Positions 1,626 to 33,846 of a DNA stretch of 64,000 bases are shown here, in pieces. The translations under genes and the position numbers were made by a program. The DNA comes from a virus. Position 1 is the stretch's first letter; every line of letters begins with the position of its first letter. The notes beneath the pieces are model-generated. The model saw only the letters and a program-made list of their open reading frames with translations. It made no database searches and had not been told where the DNA came from. Where the stretch lies: IMG/VR virus record IMGVR_UViG_3300033405_000004, positions 1-64,000 of that record. One strand, given 5' to 3'.

Positions 1626-2272
1626 TGCCCCCGACCCGCGTCAGAGTGGTGCCCGGCATCGCGGTGCCTTTCTATCCCATGCGCCCCGCCGAGGGGCGCG
1701 CCCTCTCCGACCCGGCGAGGGCCGTCGAACTGGTGCTGGAGTTCAAGGGCAACGGCGACACCCTCCAGCCCAAGCTGAACGGCGACAGGGCTGGCGTCGC
1801 CACCGTGCGGGCCTCGGCCCTGTCGGACGCCGACCGCAGCTTCTTCTCCCCCGTCGTCGTGGACGGCATCGCCCTGTTGGTGCAGAACCGGCACGGACGC
1901 CGCTACCACTACAAGGTCGCCAATCTCCCCGACTTCGCTAAGCTGCCGCCCGGCTCCTGCTTCGACGGCGAGGTCTACAAGGGCCTGTTCTACCCGTTCG
2001 AGGCGCTCGCCGTCGGCGGGACGTCCTACCTCCGGGCCGGCCCCGACGAGCGGGCCAGGGTCGCCGAGGAGGCCTGCCGGGCCGTCGGGGCGGCGTGGAT
2101 CTTCAACCCGCCCACGGAGGCCTTCTTGCGCCACCTGTCCGAAAACCTCCCCTTTTGGGAGGGCATCGTGAGGAAGCAGAGGGGGTCCCCCTACGTCTTT
2201 TGCCAGAACGACACCACGGCCAGTTCTACATGGTGGAAGCACAAGTGGCCCGCTCCCCCTCCCCATGCTTAA
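1622..2272 (+). CDS. ATP-dependent ligase-like nucleotidyltransferase (adenylation domain only)
   Basis: motif I QPKLNGDR, III FDGE, IV EGIVRK..SPY, V WWKHK; no OB domain. Confidence 0.7.
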   Translation: MMPPTRVRVVPGIAVPFYPMRPAEGRALSDPARAVELVLEFKGNGDTLQPKLNGDRAGVATVRASALSDADRSFFSPVVVDGIALLVQNRHGRRYHYKVANLPDFAKLPPGSCFDGEVYKGLFYPFEALAVGGTSYLRAGPDERARVAEEACRAVGAAWIFNPPTEAFLRHLSENLPFWEGIVRKQRGSPYVFCQNDTTASSTWWKHKWPAPPPHA

Positions 2273-2277
2273 TGCTA

Positions 2278-2492
2278 TGAACGACAAGGGGCCGGAAGGC
2301 TCGAAGGGGCCATCGCTCACCGAGGATCAGCGGGCGAGGGTCATGGGCGGGGTCCGTGAGGACACGGAGAGGATCTTTCGGCGCAACGAGCGGCGGGAGA
2401 GGCTCAGGGACAACGTCATAAGTGCGGCCATGCTGGTGTCCGTCGTGGCCATGATCCTGGGCGCGCTCGGCCACAGGCTCGGCCTCTGGTAA
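2278..2492 (+). CDS. small membrane protein
   Basis: C-terminal hydrophobic helix. Confidence 0.6.
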
Positions 2493-2544
2493 TAAATGTT
2501 TACAACATCGCGTGGGTGTGCTAGCAGTTCTTGTCAGTGAAACT

Positions 2545-2940
2545 ATGAAAACAACCGCCAAAAGACCGCAACGCATGGTCGCCACCTTTCGGGCGCTCCG
2601 GGCGGCTGACCCGTCCAAGCTCACCCCGCAGGGCTGCATGATTGTGTCGGTGCTCCGCACCCACCACCGGCCCCTGACCCGGCGCGAGCTGATCGCGGCG
2701 ATGGCCAGGCACCTCGGGAACTCCCGGCAGAAGCCGACCCGCGTCCTCTCCTTCTACAAGAAGAGCCTGCTCGCCTCCGGCTTCATCGAAGTCCGCAAGC
2801 GCCCCTACGTGGCCCCCGCCGTCAAGCCGCCCCGGTCTCCGCCGCCAGTGCCCGTCGCCCCCGTGGTTGCCCAGCCCGACTCGGCTGCGCCTTCGCCTGT
2901 GTCCGGGCCGGTCGAGGTGGCGTCCGCCCCTGTCTCCTAA
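2545..2940 (+). CDS. putative winged-helix DNA-binding protein
   Basis: LTPQ..IVSVL..PLTRRELIAAM..YKKSLLASGFIEV pattern; Pro-rich tail. Confidence 0.55.
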   Translation: MKTTAKRPQRMVATFRALRAADPSKLTPQGCMIVSVLRTHHRPLTRRELIAAMARHLGNSRQKPTRVLSFYKKSLLASGFIEVRKRPYVAPAVKPPRSPPPVPVAPVVAQPDSAAPSPVSGPVEVASAPVS

Positions 2941-2988
2941 CTTTCGTTTGCCAGCGCCCCCGGCGCTGGAGAGTGGATGGATTCATAG

Positions 2989-3020
2989 CCGCGGGCGGCT
3001 TGCGCCGCCCGCGGTTTTTT
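2989..3020 (+). terminator. intrinsic terminator
   Basis: CCGCGGGCGGC-TTGC-GCCGCCCGCGG followed by T6. Confidence 0.7.
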
Positions 3021-3023
3021 CCA

Positions 3024-3368
3024 ATGGAAATCATCAAGGGTCCAAGCGCGGCCTCGGCTAGGTTTTCCAAGTGGCTGGCCGTCGGGATGGTGGTCGTCAC
3101 GACGGGGCTGGGCGTCGCGAACAGCTGCGTCTCGCTGCCCGTCGGCCTCGTCTACATCGCGATCGCTGCGGCGCTCGTCGGCCTCGTGCGCTACAGCGTG
3201 GGGCGCGAGCAGGCCTGCGTCCAGGGTGAGTTCTGGCTCCGCCAGTTCAACGAGGCCAACGCGGAGTTCCACTGCGCCGTCAAGTCCGGCAACCTGGAGG
3301 CGATGCGGGCGGCGCACGACGCGACGGTCATGGCGTACAGCCGGTGGCTGCGGGAGATCGGACTCTAA
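3024..3368 (+). CDS. membrane protein
   Basis: two hydrophobic segments. Confidence 0.65.
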   Translation: MEIIKGPSAASARFSKWLAVGMVVVTTGLGVANSCVSLPVGLVYIAIAAALVGLVRYSVGREQACVQGEFWLRQFNEANAEFHCAVKSGNLEAMRAAHDATVMAYSRWLREIGL

Positions 3369-3426
3369 CTTTTGTTTACGAAAAAAGTTGCGACCCGCAG
3401 TTCTAATAGTCTAACACAAACTGCGC

Positions 3427-3675
3427 ATGAGCCCGCCCCACCCCCTCATCAACCGCCTGCTCCGCCACGGCTGGAAGGTCGTGATCGACGCCGACAACAT
3501 CGCCACCAGGGCCGAGATGCTGCGCCCGGACGGAGGGCTGTCGACCTCTACCGACGTGTCGGGCGTCGACGCCCAGGCCGCTCTCAACGCCTTGGAGGTC
3601 TTCATGGCCGCTTCGTTGGCCGACGAATACAATCACCAGATCACCAAGCCGAAGATTCAACCGCCTTCTCAATGA
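3427..3675 (+). CDS. hypothetical protein
   Basis: 82 aa, ATGA-coupled to next gene. Confidence 0.65.
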   Translation: MSPPHPLINRLLRHGWKVVIDADNIATRAEMLRPDGGLSTSTDVSGVDAQAALNALEVFMAASLADEYNHQITKPKIQPPSQ

Positions 3676-4070
3676 CAATCGACTGGAACGCCCTGGACGC
3701 CACCGCGAAGAACAAACTCTTCGCCGAGCGTGCGCTTGGCCTCGTCATGCGTCCCCCCGCCTTCGACTCGGACTATCACCTCGTGGACCCCGGCGGCTGG
3801 TTCGACGGTGACCGGTGCGTCTTCGAGGGCTTGCCCAACTTCACCGGCGACTCCAAGGCCGTGCTGGCCTGCCTCGACAGGCGCGACTGGAAGGCCCGGC
3901 ACATCGGCCCCGACCAGGTCAACTACTGGACCGTGACGCTGTTCGACTTCTCGCGGCCGTGGCCCCACGAGGTCCGCAGCGGCGAGTGCGCCTCCCTCGC
4001 GGAGGCGGGCATGGTCGCCCTGCTGCTCGCCGCGGGCGTCGGGGTTACCGGCGTCCTCGGCCTGCGCTGA
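3672..4070 (+). CDS. phage ABA-sandwich (BC1872-like) protein
   Basis: LPNFTGDSKAV...SLAEAGMVALL pattern. Confidence 0.5.
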   Translation: MTIDWNALDATAKNKLFAERALGLVMRPPAFDSDYHLVDPGGWFDGDRCVFEGLPNFTGDSKAVLACLDRRDWKARHIGPDQVNYWTVTLFDFSRPWPHEVRSGECASLAEAGMVALLLAAGVGVTGVLGLR

Positions 4071-4628: not shown

Positions 4629-4699
4629 CCATGCGCTTCTGCCAGTCATGCGAGCACTGGGACGCCCCCGGGTAGTCCTTCGCCCCGTGACCCCCTTCC

Positions 4700-5041
4700 A
4701 TGAAGACCAAAATCGCCACGATACTCCTCGCCGGCCTCCTCGCGGTGCTGGCCATCGGATGGGTCGTTCAGGGGAACGACTACTTCCTGTTCAAGGTGTT
4801 CAACCCCAGGATGGAGGCGGTGCGCCGCTCCACCTTCGAGCAGTCGAAGGCCTACAACCAGGGCATGATCCAGGACCTCTACGGCATGGAGGCCCAGTAC
4901 GTCGCCGCCGACGAGGGCGGCAAGGACGCCCTGGCCAGCCTGATCCTCCACCGCTACGCCGACTACCCCGACGAGAAGCTCCCGGCCGACCTCCAGGGCT
5001 TCATGCGCCAGCTCCGCGCCCGCAAGCACCTCAACCAATAA
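4700..5041 (+). CDS. membrane-anchored protein
   Basis: N-terminal signal/TM segment. Confidence 0.75.
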   Translation: MKTKIATILLAGLLAVLAIGWVVQGNDYFLFKVFNPRMEAVRRSTFEQSKAYNQGMIQDLYGMEAQYVAADEGGKDALASLILHRYADYPDEKLPADLQGFMRQLRARKHLNQ

Positions 5042-5060
5042 CCCCTGACCCCCAGCCCCC

Positions 5061-5576
5061 ATGAAAAGAAAGCTGGCCCTCACAGTCCTGATCCCTCTCG
5101 CGCTGCTCTGGTGCGGCGCCGAGAACTCCTGCTCCGGCACGCCGGACAGCATCGCCGTCGAGAAGCAGCGGCAGGAGACCCTGCAGCGCGAGTCCAACAT
5201 GACCGTCGGCATGCCCGCCGTCCACAACTTCAGGGAGAAGAAGCTCCTGAAGGACATCATCGAGCTGCGCGACCAGAACGGCCTCGTCACCTACACCTAC
5301 ATCGTGGCGGAGATGACCGGCAAGCTGGTCTTCCTCGGCGAGTCCGTCGGCTACGGCATCCCCTACGCCACCCAGTTCACCAACCCGCAGCAGACCATCC
5401 CCTACGGGCAGGGGGCGACCACCATCGCCCAGGCCGACCCCAACGGCCTCTACTCGCCCGCCACCGCCGAGGGCACTTGGGTGCTCCTCAAGGACCCCAA
5501 CGGCGGCGACGTGAAGCCCGTCTACGTCGAGCCCCGCGTCATCGTCTCCCCCTTCAGGCTCCAGACCGTGCCGTGA
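5061..5576 (+). CDS. putative lipoprotein
   Basis: signal peptide ending in Cys; GYGIPYATQFTNPQ and QADPNGLYS motifs seen in phage lipoproteins. Confidence 0.7.
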   Translation: MKRKLALTVLIPLALLWCGAENSCSGTPDSIAVEKQRQETLQRESNMTVGMPAVHNFREKKLLKDIIELRDQNGLVTYTYIVAEMTGKLVFLGESVGYGIPYATQFTNPQQTIPYGQGATTIAQADPNGLYSPATAEGTWVLLKDPNGGDVKPVYVEPRVIVSPFRLQTVP

Positions 5577-5929
5577 ATGAGACGAGGACGTTCAACGAGG
5601 CCGCGTACGAGCGGCTGCCCCGCCGGGGCCGGCGGTACGTCAGGGGCGTCGTGCACGACTTCGGCCTCCTGCGGCCGGGGCCGTACGTCGCGACGGACAC
5701 GCCGGAGCGGGCGTTCCTGATCGCGGTGGCCCTGTTCGCGGAGCGGAACCCCTCCACCCCCGTCAAGTACACCGGGCCGGGCGGCGACCAGCGCGACGTC
5801 CCGCCGGGCGCCCCGTGGACGGAGATCGACACCCCGACGGCGGCCACGGACTGGGGCGACCGCGGCGACGGGGAGGACTGGAGGGACGAGCCCTGGATCG
5901 GCTTCGACGGCAAGCAGGTCGAACTTTGA
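5573..5929 (+). CDS. hypothetical protein
   Basis: GTG overlapping upstream stop. Confidence 0.6.
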   Translation: MNETRTFNEAAYERLPRRGRRYVRGVVHDFGLLRPGPYVATDTPERAFLIAVALFAERNPSTPVKYTGPGGDQRDVPPGAPWTEIDTPTAATDWGDRGDGEDWRDEPWIGFDGKQVEL

Positions 5930-20863: not shown

Positions 20864-23299
20864 TTAAGTAATCAGCCAGACGGAGACCCAATCGAGGACC
20901 GCCCCGCTGCCTTGCGCCCCCTGCGCCCCCTGCGGGCCCGTGGCGCCCGCGCCGCCCTGGTAGCCCTGCGGGCCGGTGGCGCCCTGCGGGCCGGTGCCCC
21001 CGAGGAACCCGGACGCGCCCTGCGGGCCGGTGTCGCCCTGGAAGCCCTGGGCGCCGGTCGCGCCCTGGGGCCCCCCGTAGGAGCCTTGCGGCCCGGTGTC
21101 GCCTTGCGGCCCCTGCGCCCCCGTGCCCGACGCCCCCTGCGTGCCGGTGCCGCCCTGGTAGCCCTGGTAGCCCTGGACGCCGGTGCTCCCCTGGTAGCCC
21201 TGCGGGCCCGTGCTGCCCTGGAATCCCTGGGCGCCCGTGCTGCCCTGGACGCCCTGGCTCCCCGTCGAGCCAACGACGCCCTGGTACCCTTGCGTGCCGG
21301 TCGCGCCCTGGACGCCCGTGCCCCCCTGGAGGCCCTGGTAGCCTTGGGCGCCCGTGCTGCCCTGGAGGCCCTGGTACCCCTGGGTTCCGGTCGCCCCTTG
21401 GAGGCCCTGGTAGCCTTGGGCCCCCGTTCCGCCCTGCGGGCCGGTGCTGCCCTGGAGGCCCTGGTAGCCCTGCGCCCCCGTGGCTCCCTGCGGCCCCCCG
21501 AACGCGCCCTGTGGCCCTGTGTCGCCTTGCAGGCCCTGGTACCCCTGGGTTCCGGTGCCGCCCTGGTACCCTTGCGCCCCGGTGCTCCCCTGGTAGCCCT
21601 GGTACCCCTGCGCCCCGGTGCCTGGGACGCCCTGGTAGCCCTGGACGCCGGTGCTCCCCTGATAGCCCTGGTAGCCTTGCGTGCCCGTGCTGCCCTGGTA
21701 GCCTTGGTTCCCGGTCTTGCCCTGGTAGCCCTGGTTCCCTTGGGAGCCGGTGCTGCCCTGCAGGCCTTGGTACCCCTGCGCCCCGGTGCTCCCCTGGAGG
21801 CCCTGGTACCCCTGGGTTCCGGTCGAGCCTTGCAGGCCTTGAAAGCCTTGGTTGCCCTGCGGGCCGGTGCTCCCCTGGAGGCCCTGGTAGCCCTGGGGCC
21901 CCGTGTCGCCCTGCGGCCCCCCGAACGCGCCCTGCGGGCCCGTGCTGCCCTGGTAGCCCTGGGTGCCGGTGCCGCCTTGGGTTCCGGTGCTGCCCTGGTA
22001 CCCCTGGGCGCCCGTGCTGCCCTGGAGGCCCTGGTAGCCCTGGGCCCCGGTGCCTGGGGTGCCCTGGGCGCCCGTGCTCCCTTGGTAGCCCTGGTACCCC
22101 TGCGGGCCGGTCGCGCCTTGCGGCCCCCCGAACGCCCCCTGCGGGCCGGTCGCGCCCTGGGCCCCCTGCGTCCCAACCCCCGTGGAGCCCTGGGCGCCCG
22201 TCTTCCCTTGGGTGCCCGTGGAACCCTGGTAGCCCTGGAACCCTTGCGGCCCGGTGCTGCCCTGGTAGCCCTGGTAGCCCTGGTTCCCCTGGTTGCCCTG
22301 GTTGCCCTGGTTGCCCTGGGGGCCGGGGCTGCCTTGGAAGCCGCGGGGGCCTTGGGTGCCGGGCGGCCCCTGCGGGCCGGTGATGCCCTGCGGGCCGCCG
22401 AACGCGCCCTGGTAGCCTTGCGGGCCCTGCGGGCCCGTGCCCCCGAGGAAGCCGGAGGTTCCTTGCGCCCCCTGCGCCCCTTGCGCCCCCTGCGGCCCTT
22501 GATTGCCGGCGCCGAAGCCCCCGCCGCCGGGGGTGCCGGTCGTCACGACGCCCATCTGCTGGATGGCCGCGGTGCGCTGGGCCGGCGTCGCCTTGGTGGC
22601 GGGCGCCGTCGTGCCCGCCGAGGAAACGGTCGTAGCGGCCGTTGCTGTGGCTGGCCCGGCCGCCAGCTCCTTGACCTGCGCGATGAGGGCCTTGATCTGC
22701 GCAGCTTTCTGCTTCTGCGAGGCGCTCAAGGCGGTGATCGAGGACGCCCCGCCGGTCTGGATGGCTTGCGCGACTCCGGCGATCAGGTCGGGCGAGACCG
22801 AAGGGATGACGGACGGGGCCGACGGGTCGCCCACGCCGCCGATCGCGCAGACGGCCGTGACGCAGTCGAGCGCCGAGAGCGGCGGGATGGCCGCGTTGGC
22901 CAGCCCCGTGGCCGCCTGGTTGACCAGCCCGTTCAGCTCGCTGTCGAGGCCCATCAGCTTCTCGTAGGGGTGCTCCAGCAGCGAGTCCGCCAGGTTGGCG
23001 TAGGCGTCCCGCACCATCTGGCGCAGCAGGTTCACCCCGACGTTGAAGGGGTCGAGCGGCGGCAGCAGCCCCGGGCAGGCGTCCGCGATCTGGTTGTAGA
23101 GGGTCGGGTCGACGAGGTTGTACGGGATGAGCGTCGACGGGTCGGGCAGCGTGATCGAGTCGCCCGCCAGCTCCAGCAGGCTCGCCAGCCTGCGCAGCGC
23201 GTACAGCCTCCCGGTCAGCTTGGACAGCGTCGAGATCGCCAGGATCTTGAGGCTGTCCAGCGTGGTGCAAAGCTGCCCGGCGTTCAGAGGTAGGGCCAC
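20864..23299 (-). CDS. collagen-like fibre protein
   Basis: ~250-aa N-terminal domain, then a long Gly-X-Y tract ([12 protein letters not shown]). Confidence 0.9.
20905..22505 (-). repeat. 9-bp degenerate tandem repeat encoding Gly-X-Y
   Basis: recurring ccctggtag / ccctgcggg units. Confidence 0.9.
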
Positions 23300-26650: not shown

Positions 26651-27090
26651 CAGACGCGGCGCCTCAGCGCGGCGCGGGCGATCTTGCGCAGCGCCGGGAT
26701 GGTGCCGGGCGTGTCGTCCTTGCAGGCGGCGATTTCCTTCAAAGCTTTCTCCATCCGGTTCCGCGCCGGGATCAGCGCCACGCTGACCTCCAGGCCCCGC
26801 GCGTGGCACGCGGCCGCCAGGTCCTCGAAGCGGGTGCTCCCGTGGAACACGACGGGGATGGTGTGGTCAGCCTCTTCCTTTCTCGCCGGGTTGACGGCGG
26901 TGCGGTGCTTCCATTTGAGCTTCACTCGACAATGCTTCGCATTGCTGATCAGTTCTTTTTCGCTATGGACGCAGGCCATGAGATGGCCGAATCGGTTTCG
27001 GGTCGTCCATGAGTCTTTGAACGCAGGAACCGGGTCTTCGCCGGGGCGGTAGGCTGTCCATGTGTCGCCCTTGAAGATAGACTTTGCCAT
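26650..27090 (-). CDS. hypothetical protein (gene A, copy 1)
   Basis: C-terminal half homologous to the region within 30585-30955. Confidence 0.65.
   Translation of the reverse strand: MAKSIFKGDTWTAYRPGEDPVPAFKDSWTTRNRFGHLMACVHSEKELISNAKHCRVKLKWKHRTAVNPARKEEADHTIPVVFHGSTRFEDLAAACHARGLEVSVALIPARNRMEKALKEIAACKDDTPGTIPALRKIARAALRRRV
26687..26758 (+). repeat. direct repeat, copy 1 (copy 2 at 30591-30662)
   Basis: 71/72 nt identical by eye; weaker similarity extends ~100 nt further. Confidence 0.9.
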
Positions 27091-27159
27091 GCTGGGACGT
27101 TGTAGACAACGCTGACGGAGGTTCAAGCTTTTTATCATAAACTTTTTTTGTAAACAAGT

Positions 27160-27189
27160 TTGACATGGCGCCGTCGGCCAACCTAGCTT
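27160..27189 (+). promoter_or_regulatory. sigma70-like promoter of the Cas7-like gene
   Basis: TTGACA-18 nt-TAGCTT, preceded by TCATAAACTTTTTTT element. Confidence 0.6.
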
Positions 27190-27198
27190 CGCCTCGCC

Positions 27199-27882
27199 AT
27201 GAAGTTCAAAACTATCAAATTGAAGATTACGCTCATCGAACAGATGCTGGGCACCAAAGCGGCGAACAAGGACGTGTTCGCGGACTACATCGCCTCCAAG
27301 GCGCCTGACGACGACCTGCGAAAGCAGGAGCTTGACACCGCCGAGCACCGCGAGGAGGCGGGCACCACCGTGTTCCACCGCGACGCAGACGGCGCGCTCA
27401 TCATGTGGAACTACCAGTTCAAGGGCTTCCTCAAGGAGTCCGCCAACGTCATCCGGCAGACCATGTCCGGCGACGGCGAGGAGCCACCCGAGGCTGCGGC
27501 GGGGGCGGCGGCGGTGAAGAAGCCCCGCAAGCGCGGAACCGTCTGGGGCAACGCGAAGGCGAAGATCGACAATTTCCTGTTCGTGTCGCCCCGGCAGATC
27601 AAGCTCTTCGCGCCCGGCCGCGTCGTCGCGGCCAAAACCAGGCCGGACGGCGTCTGCGAACGCCCGCTCCGGGCCGAGACCCAGCAGGGCCCGCGGGTGA
27701 CCGTGGCGCGCTCCGAAGTCGTCGACCCCGGCACCTACTTCATCTGCGAGGTCAGCCTGGTCGAAGGCGGGCCGGTCACCGAGGAGATGGTCCTCCAGTG
27801 CCTCGACTACGGCGCCCTCAAGGGCCTCGGCCAGTGGCGCAACAGCGGCAAGGGCGCGTTCAGCTACCAGATCCTGGACTGA
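27199..27882 (+). CDS. stand-alone Cas7/RAMP-like RNA-binding protein
   Basis: beta1 IKLKITLIEQMLG; YQFKGFLKES helix; thumb ERPLRAETQQGPRVTVARSEVV; C-terminal Gly-rich loop LDYGALKGLGQWRNSGKGAF. Confidence 0.75.
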   Translation: MKFKTIKLKITLIEQMLGTKAANKDVFADYIASKAPDDDLRKQELDTAEHREEAGTTVFHRDADGALIMWNYQFKGFLKESANVIRQTMSGDGEEPPEAAAGAAAVKKPRKRGTVWGNAKAKIDNFLFVSPRQIKLFAPGRVVAAKTRPDGVCERPLRAETQQGPRVTVARSEVVDPGTYFICEVSLVEGGPVTEEMVLQCLDYGALKGLGQWRNSGKGAFSYQILD

Positions 27883-29220
27883 GCGGCGGCATGGTTAAGC
27901 ACTGCAAAGCAGAGTGTTGCATGGGCGATGTAGAGCACAGCAGAGTCTGCCACGCTGAGCAAAGGCGAAGTCGAGCACTGCATTGCAACGTGGAGCGGCG
28001 TGAAGGCGTTGTTCCGCAAAGTAGGGCGCAGGCGAGGCGTTTGCCTAGTGCTGCAGGGCATCGCGATGCGACGCATCGGTGTTGCGTAAGGCACGTCTAC
28101 GCCCGGTACCGCAGAGGCACAGCGCTGTTAAGCATCGTCGTGTGGAGCAAAGGCAAAGCAGAGCGAAGCGCTACGCGGCGCTGGCGCAGTGAAGCGGAGC
28201 GAGGCTGTAAGCAACGCTGGGGCTGGGTATCGCATCGCACCACGACGCTCCGCTCAGCTAAGGCCGTGCATAGTTACGCACCGCAGGGCTTCGCGATGGC
28301 CGAAGCAATGTTCAGCACCGCTCAGGCTGGGCACCGCAGCGTGGAGCTCGGCAGCGCGACGCGAAGGCACTGCAAAGTGTGGCCCAGTAGGGCACTGGCT
28401 AAGCGCATCACCGTAGAGCATAGTGGAGCGTTGTACGGGCGCTGCGGCGCCGCGCGAAGCGCCGTCTCGCTTCGCAAAGGCCCTGCGCCGTCCCGCACCG
28501 CGAAGCATCGCAAAGCATGGTGTTGGCGCAGCTGTGTGCGGAGATGCTCGGCGGGGTACAGCCCAGGCATCGTGTGGTCATGCGAAACGTCGCACTGTGC
28601 TAGCCAAGTAGGGCGCAGTGAAGCTCAGGCATCGTGGGGCAACGCCGGGCATCGCCAGGCATCGCGACGGCTAAGCAGCGCACAGGGCCGCTCCGCAAGG
28701 GGCATGGCTGCGCTCCGTCTAGTAATGCGTCGCATCGGCAGAGCCTCGTTAGGTGAGGCCAAGCTAGGCGCGGGCTTAGCTATGCGCAGTAGCGTGTGGC
28801 TTGGCTCGGCTCGGCAAGGGCGTAGCACTGCACCTCGTGGCAGCGCACGGCGAAGCGAAGGTGAAGCCGAGCACGGCGAAGCACAGCCTGGCATGGCAAG
28901 GCGCAGCGCTGTCGTGCGTAGGCCCCGCACTCGAAGCGAGGCTCCGGCAGCGAGTTGCTATGCACGGCAGGGCTAGAGTAACGCTGCGCGGAGCGAGGCG
29001 AAGGCTCGGCCGAGCACTGCGCAGCACAGCGATGCACGGGCCCTACCCGGCGGCCCCCGGCGGAGTGAGCGACGCGAAGGCAACGCGGGGCATAGCAATG
29101 CCACGGCAGGGCAGCGCGGAGACTGTTCAGCGAAGGCAAAGCACAGTGGAGCGCGGTGGTGCCAAGGCCGTTGTGTGGCTTCGTTTCGCGACGTGAAGTG
29201 GTGCGAAGCGTGGGCGCTGT
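27883..29220 (+). ncRNA. putative guide-RNA array with 5-nt GY-NNN periodicity
   Basis: e.g. GC ATG GT TAA GC ACT GC AAA GC AGA GT GTT GC ATG G; pattern persists ~1.34 kb; no codon bias; RNA function inferred. Confidence 0.75.
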
Positions 29221-29247
29221 GAAGGGCCGGCCTCAGGCCGGCCCTTC
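29221..29247 (+). terminator. perfect hairpin closing the array
   Basis: GAAGGGCCGGCCT-C-AGGCCGGCCCTTC, then CTGTTCTT. Confidence 0.7.
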
Positions 29248-29262
29248 CTGTTCTTATGGGGC

Positions 29263-29343
29263 GTGAAGAAGACCCGAACGGAGCGCGTCGATCAGGTCCT
29301 GGAGCAGGCCCTGAAGGGCGAGGACGTCGGATGCCGATGCTGA
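29263..29343 (+). pseudogene. duplicated 5' fragment of the large terminase gene
   Basis: MKKTRTERVDQVLEQALKGEDV versus TerL MKKTTRTERVDQVLEQALRGEDV; upstream GTTCTTA motif also retained. Confidence 0.85.
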
Positions 29344-29506
29344 AGACCAGCTTGGCCCCGCACTTGGGGCACGCCCAGGGGCTTTCCTCGTAGATGCCCA
29401 CGATTTGGCTCCAGGCGGGGAACTCGGCGCCGCAGACGCACTTCGTCAGCGGCAGGTGCTCGTCGTCGTTGCGCTGGAAGGACACCCTGTCGGTCACGTC
29501 GTTCAT
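29328..29506 (-). pseudogene. 3'-truncated Zn-ribbon protein
   Basis: CVCG...CPKCG; coding character stops at the terL-fragment junction. Confidence 0.55.
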
Positions 29507-29826
29507 GCGAGGAAGGTGTCGTGGAACCATTGGCGCAGGCTCCTGTGCGCCCCGGCCGGCGGCTTCGGGCGGCCGGTGGGCACCACGGGCCGCCATTCGC
29601 GCAGGTCGAGGGAGCAGTGGTCGGGCCACTTCACTGCCAGCGAGCAGTATTCCAGGAAGCGGGCGCACTTGGCGTGCTCGCGCGCCGACGCCACGGTCGA
29701 CGCCCAGTCTGCCGGCCGCTGGTGGGCGCAGGTGTCGCAGCACTTCACGGGCGAGTTGAGGTACGCCGGGCCGGCGGGGGGCCGGGGCCTGCCGTCGAGG
29801 TCGAACCTGCGGATGGGGTCGCTCAT
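29503..29826 (-). CDS. PIRRFDL-motif Cys-rich protein
   Basis: MSDPIRRFDLDG...CCDTCAH. Confidence 0.6.
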   Translation of the reverse strand: MSDPIRRFDLDGRPRPPAGPAYLNSPVKCCDTCAHQRPADWASTVASAREHAKCARFLEYCSLAVKWPDHCSLDLREWRPVVPTGRPKPPAGAHRSLRQWFHDTFLA

Positions 29827-30095
29827 GCCGGTTCGAGGCCGCTGGGGGCCGACGGGTCGACGGGGTCGAGCCAGGCCAGCGGCACGGTCGCGTCCATGCC
29901 GATGATGTTGGGCTCGTCCTCGTCGCCCAGGTTTTCGTTCCAGATCACCTTGCCGTAGGGCGTGTCGTCGACCCCCGCTGCCGAAATCTGGGCGCCGATG
30001 ACCTTGGTGAGCATGACGCGCTGCACCTCGCCGTTGGGCCACCGGCAGGTGTACTCGCGGTTGCACTCGTAGCTGGAAAGGTCTACTGCGGCCAT
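29823..30095 (-). CDS. hypothetical protein
   Basis: 90 aa, coupled. Confidence 0.65.
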   Translation of the reverse strand: MAAVDLSSYECNREYTCRWPNGEVQRVMLTKVIGAQISAAGVDDTPYGKVIWNENLGDEDEPNIIGMDATVPLAWLDPVDPSAPSGLEPA

Positions 30096-30955
30096 GTCCA
30101 GGGTTCCTCGTGGTCGAGGGCGTTGTCGACTTCGGGCAGGCCGAGGGCCTCGCCCTTCTGGGCGAGCCAGATTTCATGGTAGCCCTGCTCGGTTGGGAAG
30201 CCGTAGGGGAACGCGAACGCGAGCTGCTCCGTCCCGATCAGGGCGTTCAGCCGGTGGTGGAGCACGTGGAGGGCGTGGGCCCACAGGACGACCTTGCCGG
30301 GCCGATCGCACATGCAGAGCACCAGCATCACGGCCGCCACGGACACCCGGGTCGTCGGCGAGCGCTCCGCCATGCGGCCGCAGAGGATGAGGAGGCTGGC
30401 GTCGTCCTTCATCGGGGCCAGCATCCCTTTCGCGGGGTCGGCCCAGTCGATTGGATTGGCGACTTCGCTGCCGTCGTTTTCCGCGATCGTCAGCCTGGCG
30501 AAGGTCTCGGTGAGTTTCCTGCTCATCGGTTCGCGGCTGGTCTCAGGGAGGTCGAGGATGGATTTGAGCGGGGGCACGTTCATCTTAGTCCGCAGCGCCG
30601 GGATGGTGCCAGGCGTGTCGTCCTTGCAGGCGGCGATTTCCTTCAAAGCTTTCTCCATCCGGGCCTGCCGCGGCGCCGGGACCAGCGTCGCGCGGATCTC
30701 CAGGCCCCGCGCGTGGCACGCGGCCACCAGGTCCTCGAACTTGGTGCCCCCGTGGAACGCGACGGGGACGGTGCGCGTGCCGCCCCTTGCCGCGGCGAGG
30801 TCGGGGGCGGCGGGGCGCAAGTACACGTCGGCGGGTCCGAACTGCGACCGGTCGCCGTCGCACGAAAGGCATGCCTCGGTGACGTGGAGGTCGCCGGCGC
30901 GGAACACCTCGTGGGGGTCGAGGCGGTGGTAGCTCACGGTCAGGGCGCTGGGCAT
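30083..30955 (-). CDS. apparent fusion of truncated gene A copy 2 to a second gene starting at 30583
   Basis: ...TPGTIPALR-TK-MNVPPLK...; junction at the edge of the 72-bp repeat. Confidence 0.6.
   Translation of the reverse strand: MPSALTVSYHRLDPHEVFRAGDLHVTEACLSCDGDRSQFGPADVYLRPAAPDLAAARGGTRTVPVAFHGGTKFEDLVAACHARGLEIRATLVPAPRQARMEKALKEIAACKDDTPGTIPALRTKMNVPPLKSILDLPETSREPMSRKLTETFARLTIAENDGSEVANPIDWADPAKGMLAPMKDDASLLILCGRMAERSPTTRVSVAAVMLVLCMCDRPGKVVLWAHALHVLHHRLNALIGTEQLAFAFPYGFPTEQGYHEIWLAQKGEALGLPEVDNALDHEEPWTWPQ
30591..30662 (+). repeat. direct repeat, copy 2
   Basis: matches 26687-26758. Confidence 0.9.
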
Positions 30956-30959
30956 GGGG

Positions 30960-31184
30960 TTACGATTTGCCGGCGCTCTTGGGGTCCTGCATCTCGTTGT
31001 GCAGGTTCACGCCGGGGTTGGTCACGGCGCCGTTGTTGCGGATGTCCGCCCAGGACATGGGGGTGGAGCCGTCCACGTGGAGCAGGAAGTTGATCTCGCC
31101 TGCGGGCAGCTCGGGGTGGTTCGTGTCGCGCAGGATCTTCTGCACGGCGTCGGCTATTTCACGCTTCTGTCGTACGGAGAACAT
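30960..31184 (-). CDS. hypothetical protein
   Basis: MFSVRQKREIADAVQKIL..., 74 aa. Confidence 0.7.
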   Translation of the reverse strand: MFSVRQKREIADAVQKILRDTNHPELPAGEINFLLHVDGSTPMSWADIRNNGAVTNPGVNLHNEMQDPKSAGKS

Positions 31185-31248
31185 GGCTTTAGGAAGTTGT
31201 AAACATTTTCCCCGAGGGCAAGTCTTTTCCTTCACCGTTCTTACTGGC

Positions 31249-33846
31249 GTGAAGAAGACGACCCGAACGGAGCGCGTCGACCAGGTCCTGGAGCAGGCCC
31301 TCCGGGGCGAGGACGTGGACCGGCTGATGGCGGGCCTCTCCGAGGGCGACAAGGAGCTGTTCCACCAGCTCGTGGCCCGGCTCCGCAAGGGCGGCGGCCC
31401 GGTGAGCGACGACCTCTGGCTCGTCGACTATACGCGCCGGCCCCCGACCATGGCCGAGTTCATCGAGGACCCGTACTGGATGGGCGACGTGCTCGTGCCG
31501 AGCGAGTTCAGCCGGGGCCTGTTCCCCACCTGGAGGGAGAAGCTCGTCAAGGACTTCGACATCGACAGCCGCGTGCACAACATCGTCATCACCGGGAGCC
31601 TCGCCATCGGCAAGTGCCACTACCACGGCTACGAGGTGCTCGGCTTCGACGGCGTGCCGGTGGCCGTCCAGCACGTGCGGCAGGGCGATTGGCTCATGGG
31701 GCCGGACTCCAGGCCGCGGCGGGTCGTGAGCGTCTGCAAGGGCGCCGGGCCGCTGTACCTGGTCAAGCCCCGCGACTTCCCCGCCTTCTGGGTCAACGGC
31801 GAGCACAAGCTCGTCGTCAGCGACGGCTTCGACTGGGCGACCATGACGCCGGAGCAGTGGCTGGCGCAGCCGCTCAGGCGCGACTGGCAGCTCAGGCGGC
31901 CGCCCGCGGTCACCTTCAACTCCCGCCGGACCGCGCTGGCCTGGCACCGGGCGCACGGGCGCGGGAAGGACGAGGTCGTCAGGCGGACGGTGGTGCTGGA
32001 GCGCACGGCCAGCCCGTTCACCGTCGAGCCGGCTGGGCATACCGGCGACTACTACGGGTTCACGCTGGAGCGCCTCGACCGCACGGACGGGTCGGTGGAG
32101 GACGGCGCCTTCCTGGGCAACACCCTGGCCCGCGGCGCCCACCCCTCGCTCTACCTCGGCGCGGACGGCGTCGTCCACCACAACACCTACATCACCGGCG
32201 TCATCTTCCTGTACCGCGTCGTCCTGGCGTCCCTCCTGCGCTACCCGGAGCGGTTCTTCGGCCTGGGCAAGGGTAGCCGCATCTACTACGTCCTGCTCTC
32301 GATCACGCGGGCCGCCGTGAGCGACACCATCTTCGGCGACGTCCAGAACTTCATGGCCCAGAGCCCCTACTTCCTGGAGGAGTGCCACTTCAACCCCGAG
32401 CGGAAGTACGCCGACTTCCGGGTCGGCCTGGGGCGGGGCCTGTTCATCACCGCCGGCTCCAAGGGCTGGCACGTCATCGGCCGCAACACCATGGGCGTTG
32501 CCCTCGACGAGGGCAACTGGCGCCTGGAGGCCAACCCCGACCAGCGCGCCTACGACCTGTACGGCGAGGTGCGCCAGCGCATCAAGGGCCGCTTCCAGCA
32601 GGTCACCGGCTACCTCCCCGCCATCAGCATCCTCGCCTCCTCGGCGCGCGACGAGTCCGCCTTCACCGAGACGGTCATCAACGAGATCAACCAGGCCGCC
32701 AACCCGGCCGTCGAGCTCGTCTACCGCCACGCCAGCTACGAGATCCGCGAGGGTGAGCTGCGCCGGGGCCAGCGGTGGTTCAGGGTCATGTACGGCCTCA
32801 AGAACATCGAGCCGGCCATCCTCCAGGGCTTCTACACGAAGGAGGGCGCCCAGGTGCAGGGGCCGTTCGAGGAGGCGCCGCACGGCTCCCAGACCAAGCT
32901 TGTCCCCGAGGACTTCCTGCCGGAGTTCCGCCGCAACATGAAGCTCTCGCTGCAGGGCATCTGCGGCGTGTCCACGGGCGGCTCCCACCTTTTCTTCGGC
33001 AGCCCCGTCGAGCTGGAGACCGCCGTCAAGACCGGCGAGGCCAAGGGAGTCAGGAACCCCGCCGACGTGGAGCACATCCCCATCTCCGTCGAGGACACCC
33101 AGGAGGTCTGGGACTACCTCAAGCACGAGCGCTTCCTCACCCGCCGCTCCGGCTCCATCGTCCCCCTGCGCGACCCCGACGCGCCCCGCTTCGCCCACCT
33201 CGACATGGCCACCGAGTCCATCGCCGGCGTGGCGATCTGCCACCCGGTCGGCAAGGTCGAGGTGTCCAACGTCTTCAAGCCGGAGATCCCCTTCCAGCTC
33301 TTCAGCGAGTACCGCGTCGTCGCCGAGTACGACTTCATCCTCGCCATCGTCTCCGGCAAGACCAAGCCGATCAGCTTCGAGAAGGTCCTGCGCTTCTTCT
33401 TCTGGCTGCGGGAGCGGTGCGGCTTCCGCTTCGAGATGATCAGCGCCGACCAGTACCAGTCGGTGATGCCCCTCCAGGTCTTCGAGACCCGCGGCTTCAA
33501 GGTGCGGAACGTGTCCGTGGACCGGACCAAGCTGCCCTACTATGCCTGGCGGGCCGCGTTCACCGAGCGGCGCGTCTGGCTCTACCGGCACGGCCTGTTC
33601 ATGCGCGAGGCCGAGCAGCTTATCGACGGCCCGGACAAGGTGGACCACCGGCCCGAGGGCTCGAAGGACCTCACCGATGCCGCCTGCGGTGCCTACTACA
33701 ACCTCCTCGAAAGCGAATACGCGACCGGCGCGGTCTCCGCCGGGGCGTCCCCGGTGATGACGCCCGACATGGAGGAGGAGAAGCCCCCGATCGACATGAT
33801 GCCGCCCCCGCCGAAGCGCGAGGCGCCGCCGGTGTACACCGTCTGA
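31249..33846 (+). CDS. terL: terminase large subunit (intein-containing)
   Basis: Walker A ITGSLAIGK|T, Walker B VALDE, coupling motif LASS, nuclease HLDMA / SADQYQS / DH..GSKDLTDA; GTG start 31249. Confidence 0.9.
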   Translation: MKKTTRTERVDQVLEQALRGEDVDRLMAGLSEGDKELFHQLVARLRKGGGPVSDDLWLVDYTRRPPTMAEFIEDPYWMGDVLVPSEFSRGLFPTWREKLVKDFDIDSRVHNIVITGSLAIGKCHYHGYEVLGFDGVPVAVQHVRQGDWLMGPDSRPRRVVSVCKGAGPLYLVKPRDFPAFWVNGEHKLVVSDGFDWATMTPEQWLAQPLRRDWQLRRPPAVTFNSRRTALAWHRAHGRGKDEVVRRTVVLERTASPFTVEPAGHTGDYYGFTLERLDRTDGSVEDGAFLGNTLARGAHPSLYLGADGVVHHNTYITGVIFLYRVVLASLLRYPERFFGLGKGSRIYYVLLSITRAAVSDTIFGDVQNFMAQSPYFLEECHFNPERKYADFRVGLGRGLFITAGSKGWHVIGRNTMGVALDEGNWRLEANPDQRAYDLYGEVRQRIKGRFQQVTGYLPAISILASSARDESAFTETVINEINQAANPAVELVYRHASYEIREGELRRGQRWFRVMYGLKNIEPAILQGFYTKEGAQVQGPFEEAPHGSQTKLVPEDFLPEFRRNMKLSLQGICGVSTGGSHLFFGSPVELETAVKTGEAKGVRNPADVEHIPISVEDTQEVWDYLKHERFLTRRSGSIVPLRDPDAPRFAHLDMATESIAGVAICHPVGKVEVSNVFKPEIPFQLFSEYRVVAEYDFILAIVSGKTKPISFEKVLRFFFWLRERCGFRFEMISADQYQSVMPLQVFETRGFKVRNVSVDRTKLPYYAWRAAFTERRVWLYRHGLFMREAEQLIDGPDKVDHRPEGSKDLTDAACGAYYNLLESEYATGAVSAGASPVMTPDMEEEKPPIDMMPPPPKREAPPVYTV
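31615..32184 (+). mobile_element. mini-intein (190 aa, no endonuclease) in the TerL P-loop
   Basis: N-terminal CHYHG, block B VNGEH, block F YYGFTL, C-terminal VVHHN followed by Thr. Confidence 0.9.

Follow-up and report, generated by a model that had tools for sequence, protein, structure and literature searches.

A phage-borne Cas7-like gene with an adjoining array of GY-NNN pentamers, probably a VIPR-type RNA-guided system

The first 64 kb of the virus record IMGVR_UViG_3300033405_000004 (IMG/VR; linear, 157,322 bp, estimated 69% complete, 67.7% G+C), which we call the window, contain a gene for a stand-alone Cas7-like protein and, directly behind it, a 1.3-kb noncoding array of five-nucleotide units. 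In each unit a G and a pyrimidine (Y) precede three variable bases (N). We consider it likely that a large phage here carries an RNA-guided system of the VIPR type, in which the array RNA guides the Cas7-like protein. Our reading is built on the grammar of the array, the fold of the protein, the linkage of gene and array across the family, the fast turnover of the arrays and the viral context.

VIPR was first described in 2026 as a minimal RAMP protein (Vipr) together with vrRNAs made of GGY/NN pentamers (bioRxiv 10.64898/2026.04.26.720920). The vrRNAs bind double-stranded DNA, with one base of the target skipped for each unit. Most VIPR systems sit on phages or proviruses, and their role is the silencing of competing elements (10.64898/2026.04.26.720920). 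The preprint divides VIPR into seven types. Its methods state that loci without YNNGG repeats had 'NNNGG, YNNNG, and NNNNG repeats', and its results mention 'staggered arrays with overlapping vrRNAs' in a 1-nt relation (also fig. S18), which are reported as processed to individual vrRNAs (10.64898/2026.04.26.720920). A later preprint treats XYZ/NN variants, but models only three fixed and two variable bases (bioRxiv 10.64898/2026.10.21.760802). The initial annotation of the locus had pointed to a report on VIPR and, on that basis, regarded GY-NNN as a variant with a different grammar. The report exists and describes such systems; the novelty of the grammar does not stand, since the preprint text already contains both 'YNNNG' and 'staggered' arrays. 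The kind of system is thus published, including a mention of its grammar.

The vipr-like gene lies on the + strand (27199 to 27882, ATG at 27199, TGA at 27880-27882) and encodes 227 aa. Its codon usage follows the strong local bias (G+C at third codon positions, GC3, 0.92). The candidate vrRNA (guide) array begins at the base directly after the stop codon (27883) and continues on the + strand to about 29215, with approximately 260 pentamers in 37 blocks. Pairs of GC or GT at a distance of five nucleotides occur 196 times, compared to 71.7 ± 6.6 times in dinucleotide-preserving shuffles (z 18.9). GY autocorrelation is high again at lag 10 (z 11.0); at lags 4 and 9 such pairs are depleted. Units were counted by phase-tracking segmentation, which also yielded a logo over 258 units: G in 95%, then C (75%) or T (21%), then three variable positions. 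The variable triplets use 60 of the 64 possible combinations; they are A-rich, and their first position is purine-rich. T is found at unit position 2 while A is missing from position 1; hence the motif must be read on the + strand, like the gene. A sliding lag-5 statistic picks out this one period-5 region and no second one, both within the window and across the entire record, and no open reading frame (ORF) with the local codon bias exists inside the array. The initial annotation had described the main features in outline (a 227-aa gene, an array from its stop codon, a GY period of five, highly variable triplets, no trace of the neighbours' codon bias), and the outline was correct.

Units are grouped into blocks, mostly of 5-9 pentamers and about 31-41 nt each. 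At block borders the phase shifts by exactly +1 in 28 of 36 cases. The inserted base is a G at 22 of the 24 well-defined borders. Towards its end the array becomes more degenerate (the last ~180 nt, 29036-29215). Rfam detects no hammerhead or other family in the array, and the predicted folding energy of the array RNA equals that of shuffled sequences (z ~0).

The protein model has the Cas7/Csm3 RAMP fold. AlphaFold2, run on an alignment of 40 relatives, predicts (pLDDT 81.6, pTM 0.76) a ferredoxin-like/RRM core, a long beta-hairpin thumb (residues 151-175) and a C-terminal helix followed by a glycine loop (209-220). The motif KGFLKE falls inside a helix (71-89). All three hallmarks named beforehand, the glycine-rich loop, the KGFLKE helix and the thumb hairpin, are therefore present in the model, and structure comparison bears out the proposed RAMP/Cas7 fold. 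The top Foldseek matches are all CRISPR RAMPs, with type VII Cas7 best (E 3e-9) and Csm3 next. VIA, an aligner independent of Foldseek, gives Z 12.8 to Csm3 and 12.7 to type VII Cas7, and up to 13.9 in a second comparison, over 160-170 aligned residues. The fold library searched contained no solved Vipr structure. At the sequence level, Pfam, PHROGs and PADLOC offer no family for the protein. Its relatives, none of them named, nevertheless number 1,542 in a 90%-clustered collection and 1,563 as cluster representatives at 50% identity, and at least 565 viral contigs encode one. The INPHARED phage collection holds only four, all distant metagenomic records. A profile of the family reaches type VII Cas7 by sequence (E 1.3e-4, PDB sequences).

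The locus lacks the company of a CRISPR system, as was initially claimed. No Cas1 was found in the 157 kb, with positive controls working, and no CRISPR-like repeats were found at the locus; across the genome, spaced repeats of a CRISPR-like kind turned up only in the collagen tail-fibre gene and in a collagen-like region near 154,050. PADLOC run on the neighbouring genes yields no cas match beyond a chance-level 12-bit match.

For a comparison with a characterised Vipr we turned to SUSP1. We located its locus in KT454805, where GGT-NN repeats carry hairpin tails, and confirmed its vipr gene through PDB 36PP, 'SUSP1 Vipr protein' (E 7e-83). The cryo-electron microscopy structure shows that W178 and R179 stack on G2 and hold Y3, and that D177 reads G1 (10.64898/2026.04.26.720927). 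The glycine loop of our protein, GLGQWRNSGKG, aligns with the SUSP1 glycine loop. An hhalign comparison with the SUSP1 Vipr family (E 5.4e-5, probability 66.5%) covers 58 C-terminal columns, from the thumb to the glycine loop. It pairs W178 and R179 with the invariant W213 and R214, and D177 with the conserved Q212. Replacing D177, the reader of G1, by Q212 would explain a scaffold of G-Y rather than G-G-Y, if this moderate alignment is correct. Matches between the two families by hidden Markov models are marginal (E 1e-3 to 7e-3 at Z = 1e6).

Gene and array are linked throughout the family. We assembled 82 viral loci, namely 80 IMG/VR contigs of the at least 565 and two assembled phage contigs, and called arrays within ~200 nt of the gene by a simple lag-5 identity threshold. 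A period-5 array adjoins the gene in 78 of the 82 viral/metagenome loci, and two of the four exceptions have an array below the threshold. These arrays start at the stop codon of the gene, end at its start codon, or do both. Loci from genome bins (Planctomycetota, Chloroflexota, Clostridia, Bacteroidota, Coriobacteriia, Saccharibacteria and two archaeal contigs) give the same picture, with an array in 74 of 80. Combined, 152 of 162 loci have one downstream, upstream or on both sides, which agrees with the prediction that homologs carry periodic arrays. Period-5 regions elsewhere in the related loci are few. Array lengths range from ~0.13 to 1.5 kb, so that the 1.3 kb of the window array is near the top.

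The punctuation recurs as well. Long arrays in three relatives shift by +1 at every border (L006, 26 of 26; L080, 45 of 45; L012, 20 of 20). Over 295 borders the junction consensus is GCAAA-G-GC, and the extra base is G in 90%. Where orientation was scored in the viral loci, GY is on the strand of the gene in 709 of 972 blocks, about three quarters. Some loci deviate in detail. In many gut-type phages from IMG/VR (loci L013-L064) the array is upstream of the gene and unit position 2 is C or A (L016: G 87, C 62, A 23), which would be either a further variant of the grammar or a difference in orientation. The largest arrays seen flank the gene on both sides in L080 (IMG/VR_UViG_3300035130_000336; 2171-3691 and 4671-5681, ~2.5 kb in total), and there T and C are used equally at unit position 2.

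Arrays also evolve in a characteristic manner. Of the substitutions between related arrays, 11% fall on the fixed G and 16% on the Y, compared to 24-26% on each of the variable positions; fixed positions change about half as often as variable ones. All three variable positions change at equal rates, and thus no position stands out as a spacer. In phages with vipr-like genes of at least 99.5% identity, 99% of the gene 15-mers are shared, but only 65% of the array 15-mers. Array sequence is replaced more quickly than that of the neighbouring gene. All this is as expected of an array that encodes an RNA with a scaffold and a guide part.

The cassette is ~2.1 kb long and probably forms a single transcription unit of phage promoter box, vipr-like gene, array and terminator. 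The putative box, the octamer TGTAAACA, is a candidate promoter element on the + strand at 27149 to 27156, 43 nt upstream of the vipr-like ATG. It occurs 25 times in the 157-kb record, compared to ~0.6 times expected from base composition, and its copies are mostly intergenic, just upstream of start codons. Judged from this distribution, TGTAAACA is probably a phage-specific promoter class. Behind a copy there is often an A-run, with a start codon 5-50 nt away, and in some cases a TGTCATAAACTTTTT-like element stands alongside. The TTGACA promoter initially proposed found no support: the hexamer is present as letters (27160 to 27165, +), but it has no -10 partner, and a consensus scan of 26900-29500 finds no sigma-70-type promoter. 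The hairpin closing the unit is real, although its stem measures 12 bp and not the 13 bp first given. It lies at 29221 to 29247 (+) and resembles a terminator, with 10 G-C pairs, a 3-nt loop and a T-rich tail.

How would such a system operate? By analogy to SUSP1, the + strand transcript of the array would be the guide RNA, coated by the Cas7-like protein with one protomer per 5-nt unit. Each protomer would hold the constant G-Y through Trp213-Arg214 of the glycine loop and would present the variable bases for gapped pairing with the DNA of competing mobile elements, leading to their silencing. Each block (~31-41 nt, with the extra G as delimiter) is most likely one tail-less guide, which would amount to about 36 guides. 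Transcription of the array, processing at the block borders, binding by the protein, targeting of DNA and the choice of the variable bases that pair are steps that we infer.

Blocks of 6-8 units with three bases each hold 18-24 variable bases, equal to the published guides of 9-12 GGY/NN units. Equal information per guide would mildly favour a code in which all three variable bases are read. Extending this idea, the whole branch may use a denser code than GGY/NN. A protomer would then grip only G-Y and present three bases, a guide of 6-8 units would have 18-24 read bases, and the tail-less guides would be punctuated by GCAAA-G-GC, which would be cut or read by an undescribed mechanism. The target step would be 3 or 4 nt, unlike the solved 5:3 geometry. 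We see this as a real possibility, though we lean slightly against it.

Attempts to find targets have been unproductive so far. When 26 blocks were compared to the phage's own 157 kb with skips of 0-3, the best matches equalled those of decoys. Exact-pattern scans with four guides of the window array gave no match in IMG/VR under a contiguous rule, and none in IMG/VR and the JGI metagenomes under a one-base-skip rule. Exact matching is strict, hence these blanks say little. When 972 blocks from 83 loci were searched with spaced seeds in related phage DNA (1.55 Mb), an excess of matches appeared at skip 2 only. The excess consists of homologous, unmasked array pieces at syntenic positions and not of targets. 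Finally, a block-specific period-3 signal in G+C appears for a 3-nt target step only. It has z 4.5 under a fair null and z 2.0 once near-identical units are removed, and it vanished under a biased de-duplication. This composition signal is too weak to decide for a 3-nt step.

Several observations weigh against a VIPR-type system. The canonical GGY/NN unit is absent, because the base 5' of the G is not a G except at block borders. There is no conserved 3' tail, no invariant segment between blocks and no Rfam family. No vap gene is recognised and no neighbour is common to the 82 related loci, although a vap gene of a new family may be present. The variable positions are A-rich with ~50% G+C, within a phage of 68% G+C, which simple copying of high-GC targets would not produce. 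The characterised Vipr is only weakly homologous (the hhalign probability of 66.5%), and only at the C-terminus, and among PDB sequences the family profile does not match SUSP1 Vipr, yet it matches type VII Cas7. The first of these points loses force because the preprint accepts 'YNNNG' as an alternative consensus. Hence the lack of GGY/NN is no bar to membership in the wider family.

Other explanations have to be compared with a guide array. The array could be one long RNA that is coated as a continuous filament, in which the extra G adjusts the register once per turn, or the RNA could be a scaffold or decoy without sequence-specific targets. The SUSP1 binary filament has a six-subunit helical repeat (10.64898/2026.04.26.720927), which the blocks of ~6-8 units resemble, and neither Rfam nor folding energy reveals tails, ribozymes or other processing signals. 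A filament or decoy does not predict the use of 60 of 64 triplets or the fast evolution of the variable positions, both of which are as for guides. Nor does it predict that the 18-24 variable bases per block equal the information of published 9-12-unit guides. Furthermore, the preprint reports processing of staggered arrays to individual vrRNAs. We think a filament or decoy improbable, but it is the alternative we take most seriously.

The array could also act as DNA, if the RAMP-like protein bound it as iterated sites for replication, packaging or regulation. The failure of the consensus scan to find a sigma-70 promoter would suit such sites. However, the motif is strand-specific (GY and not its complement, with 709 of 972 blocks on the strand of the gene), arrays abut the stop or start codon of the gene as a co-transcribed RNA would, a terminator hairpin closes the window array, and both the RAMP fold and the glycine loop are RNA-binding features. 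Taken together, this makes DNA sites very unlikely. We give next to no weight to the idea that the region is an artefact of assembly, or a coding sequence of a degenerate or unusual kind. A 523-aa ORF (27405-28976) is open across much of the array, but the period is 5 with +1 shifts instead of 3, GC3 bias is missing, and more than 150 independent loci from different samples have a like architecture. A guide array of the VIPR type is the explanation we retain.

The surroundings of the cassette are those of a virus, with genes for a tail fibre, a DNA helicase and a DNA methyltransferase nearby. The tail fibre is an 811-aa protein with collagen repeats (20864-23299, -; Pfam Collagen, E 1e-62). 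Among isolated phages the closest helicase, only 31% identical, comes from a jumbo phage of Acidobacteria; among genome bins the closest Vipr-like relative (52%) comes from a metagenome-assembled genome of Planctomycetales. Neighbouring genes have no family match.

On both sides of the cassette there is duplicated DNA. To the left is a divergent 146-aa gene without assigned function (26653 to 27090, -). It has no family match, the ESM Atlas gave nothing informative, and among the 82 related loci it is not conserved next to the vipr relatives. In its 3' part it is a paralogue of a segment of a 290-aa gene (30083-30955): 26687-26863 is 88-93% identical to 30591-30773. To the right, homology to a second region starts directly past the terminator hairpin. 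The fragment at 29265 to 29327 (+), with which the cassette ends on this side, is 92% identical to 31254-31316, the start of a + strand gene near 31250. The duplicated divergent pair comprises the 290-aa gene on the minus strand and a Hint/intein-containing 959-aa ORF on the plus strand (30967-33846), whose match to the Hom_end-associated Hint (intein) family is weak (E 3e-5, below the Pfam cut-off). Partial duplicates of a single divergent gene pair thus stand on either side of the vipr-array unit, and this suggests that recombination brought the unit in or rearranged it. The minus strand at 29254-29520 has a small zinc-ribbon-like ORF (MNDVTDRVSFQ...CVCG...CPKCG) that starts near 29510 and is possibly a truncated remnant. 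It stays open through the hairpin into the array, and near 29340, at the beginning of the duplicated piece from the plus strand, the codon-bias signal moves to another frame.

VIPR, a class of programmable DNA binders guided by RNA, is only months old, and of its types only GGY/NN has been dissected. The locus in the window leaves the picture of VIPR itself unchanged. With its ~36 candidate guides it is a large and clear representative of a branch that is widespread, keeps two bases of each unit fixed, varies the other three and uses single bases as regular punctuation. No curated family covers this branch, whose proteins form more than 1,500 clusters and which occurs in phages of many phyla. 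Knowledge of its pairing rule and of how one block is set apart from the next would reveal the flexibility of the RAMP-RNA register, and its code could give a more compact format for programmable guides.

Among known systems, class 1 CRISPR-Cas provides the best structural matches of the protein (type VII Cas7, and Csm3/Cmr4 of type III). Unlike class 1 systems, the locus lacks CRISPR repeats, Cas1 and further cas genes, the gene is alone in a phage, and the RNA register is 5 nt rather than the 6 nt of Cas7. TIGR-Tas resembles the locus in having a non-CRISPR array of short tandem guide-encoding units, often on phages. According to its literature description, TIGR-Tas differs in its period of 18 nt and in its effector, which has a Nop domain and is not a RAMP.

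The SUSP1 VIPR system (type II, from an Escherichia phage) is closer. Both systems consist of a stand-alone phage RAMP with RRM core, thumb and glycine loop, have no CRISPR array or adaptation genes, and have an adjoining noncoding array whose 5-nt units combine fixed with hypervariable positions. The glycine loop reads G-x-G-[D/Q]-W-R in both. They differ in the unit (two fixed bases, G-Y, and three variable ones in the window array versus GGY/NN), in the length of the blocks (5-9 units versus 9-16) and in their number (~36 contiguous blocks in 1.3 kb versus 4 vrRNAs). The window array has no conserved 3' tail or pseudoknot, no vap gene was found at its locus, and its protein, similar to SUSP1 Vipr only weakly and at the C-terminus, has Gln in place of D177. 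The closest likeness, matched by text description only, is to the non-canonical VIPR variants. YNNNG is GYNNN in another register, and the tail-less, contiguous vrRNAs of the 'staggered' arrays, with their 1-nt relation, fit the +1 grammar that we observe.

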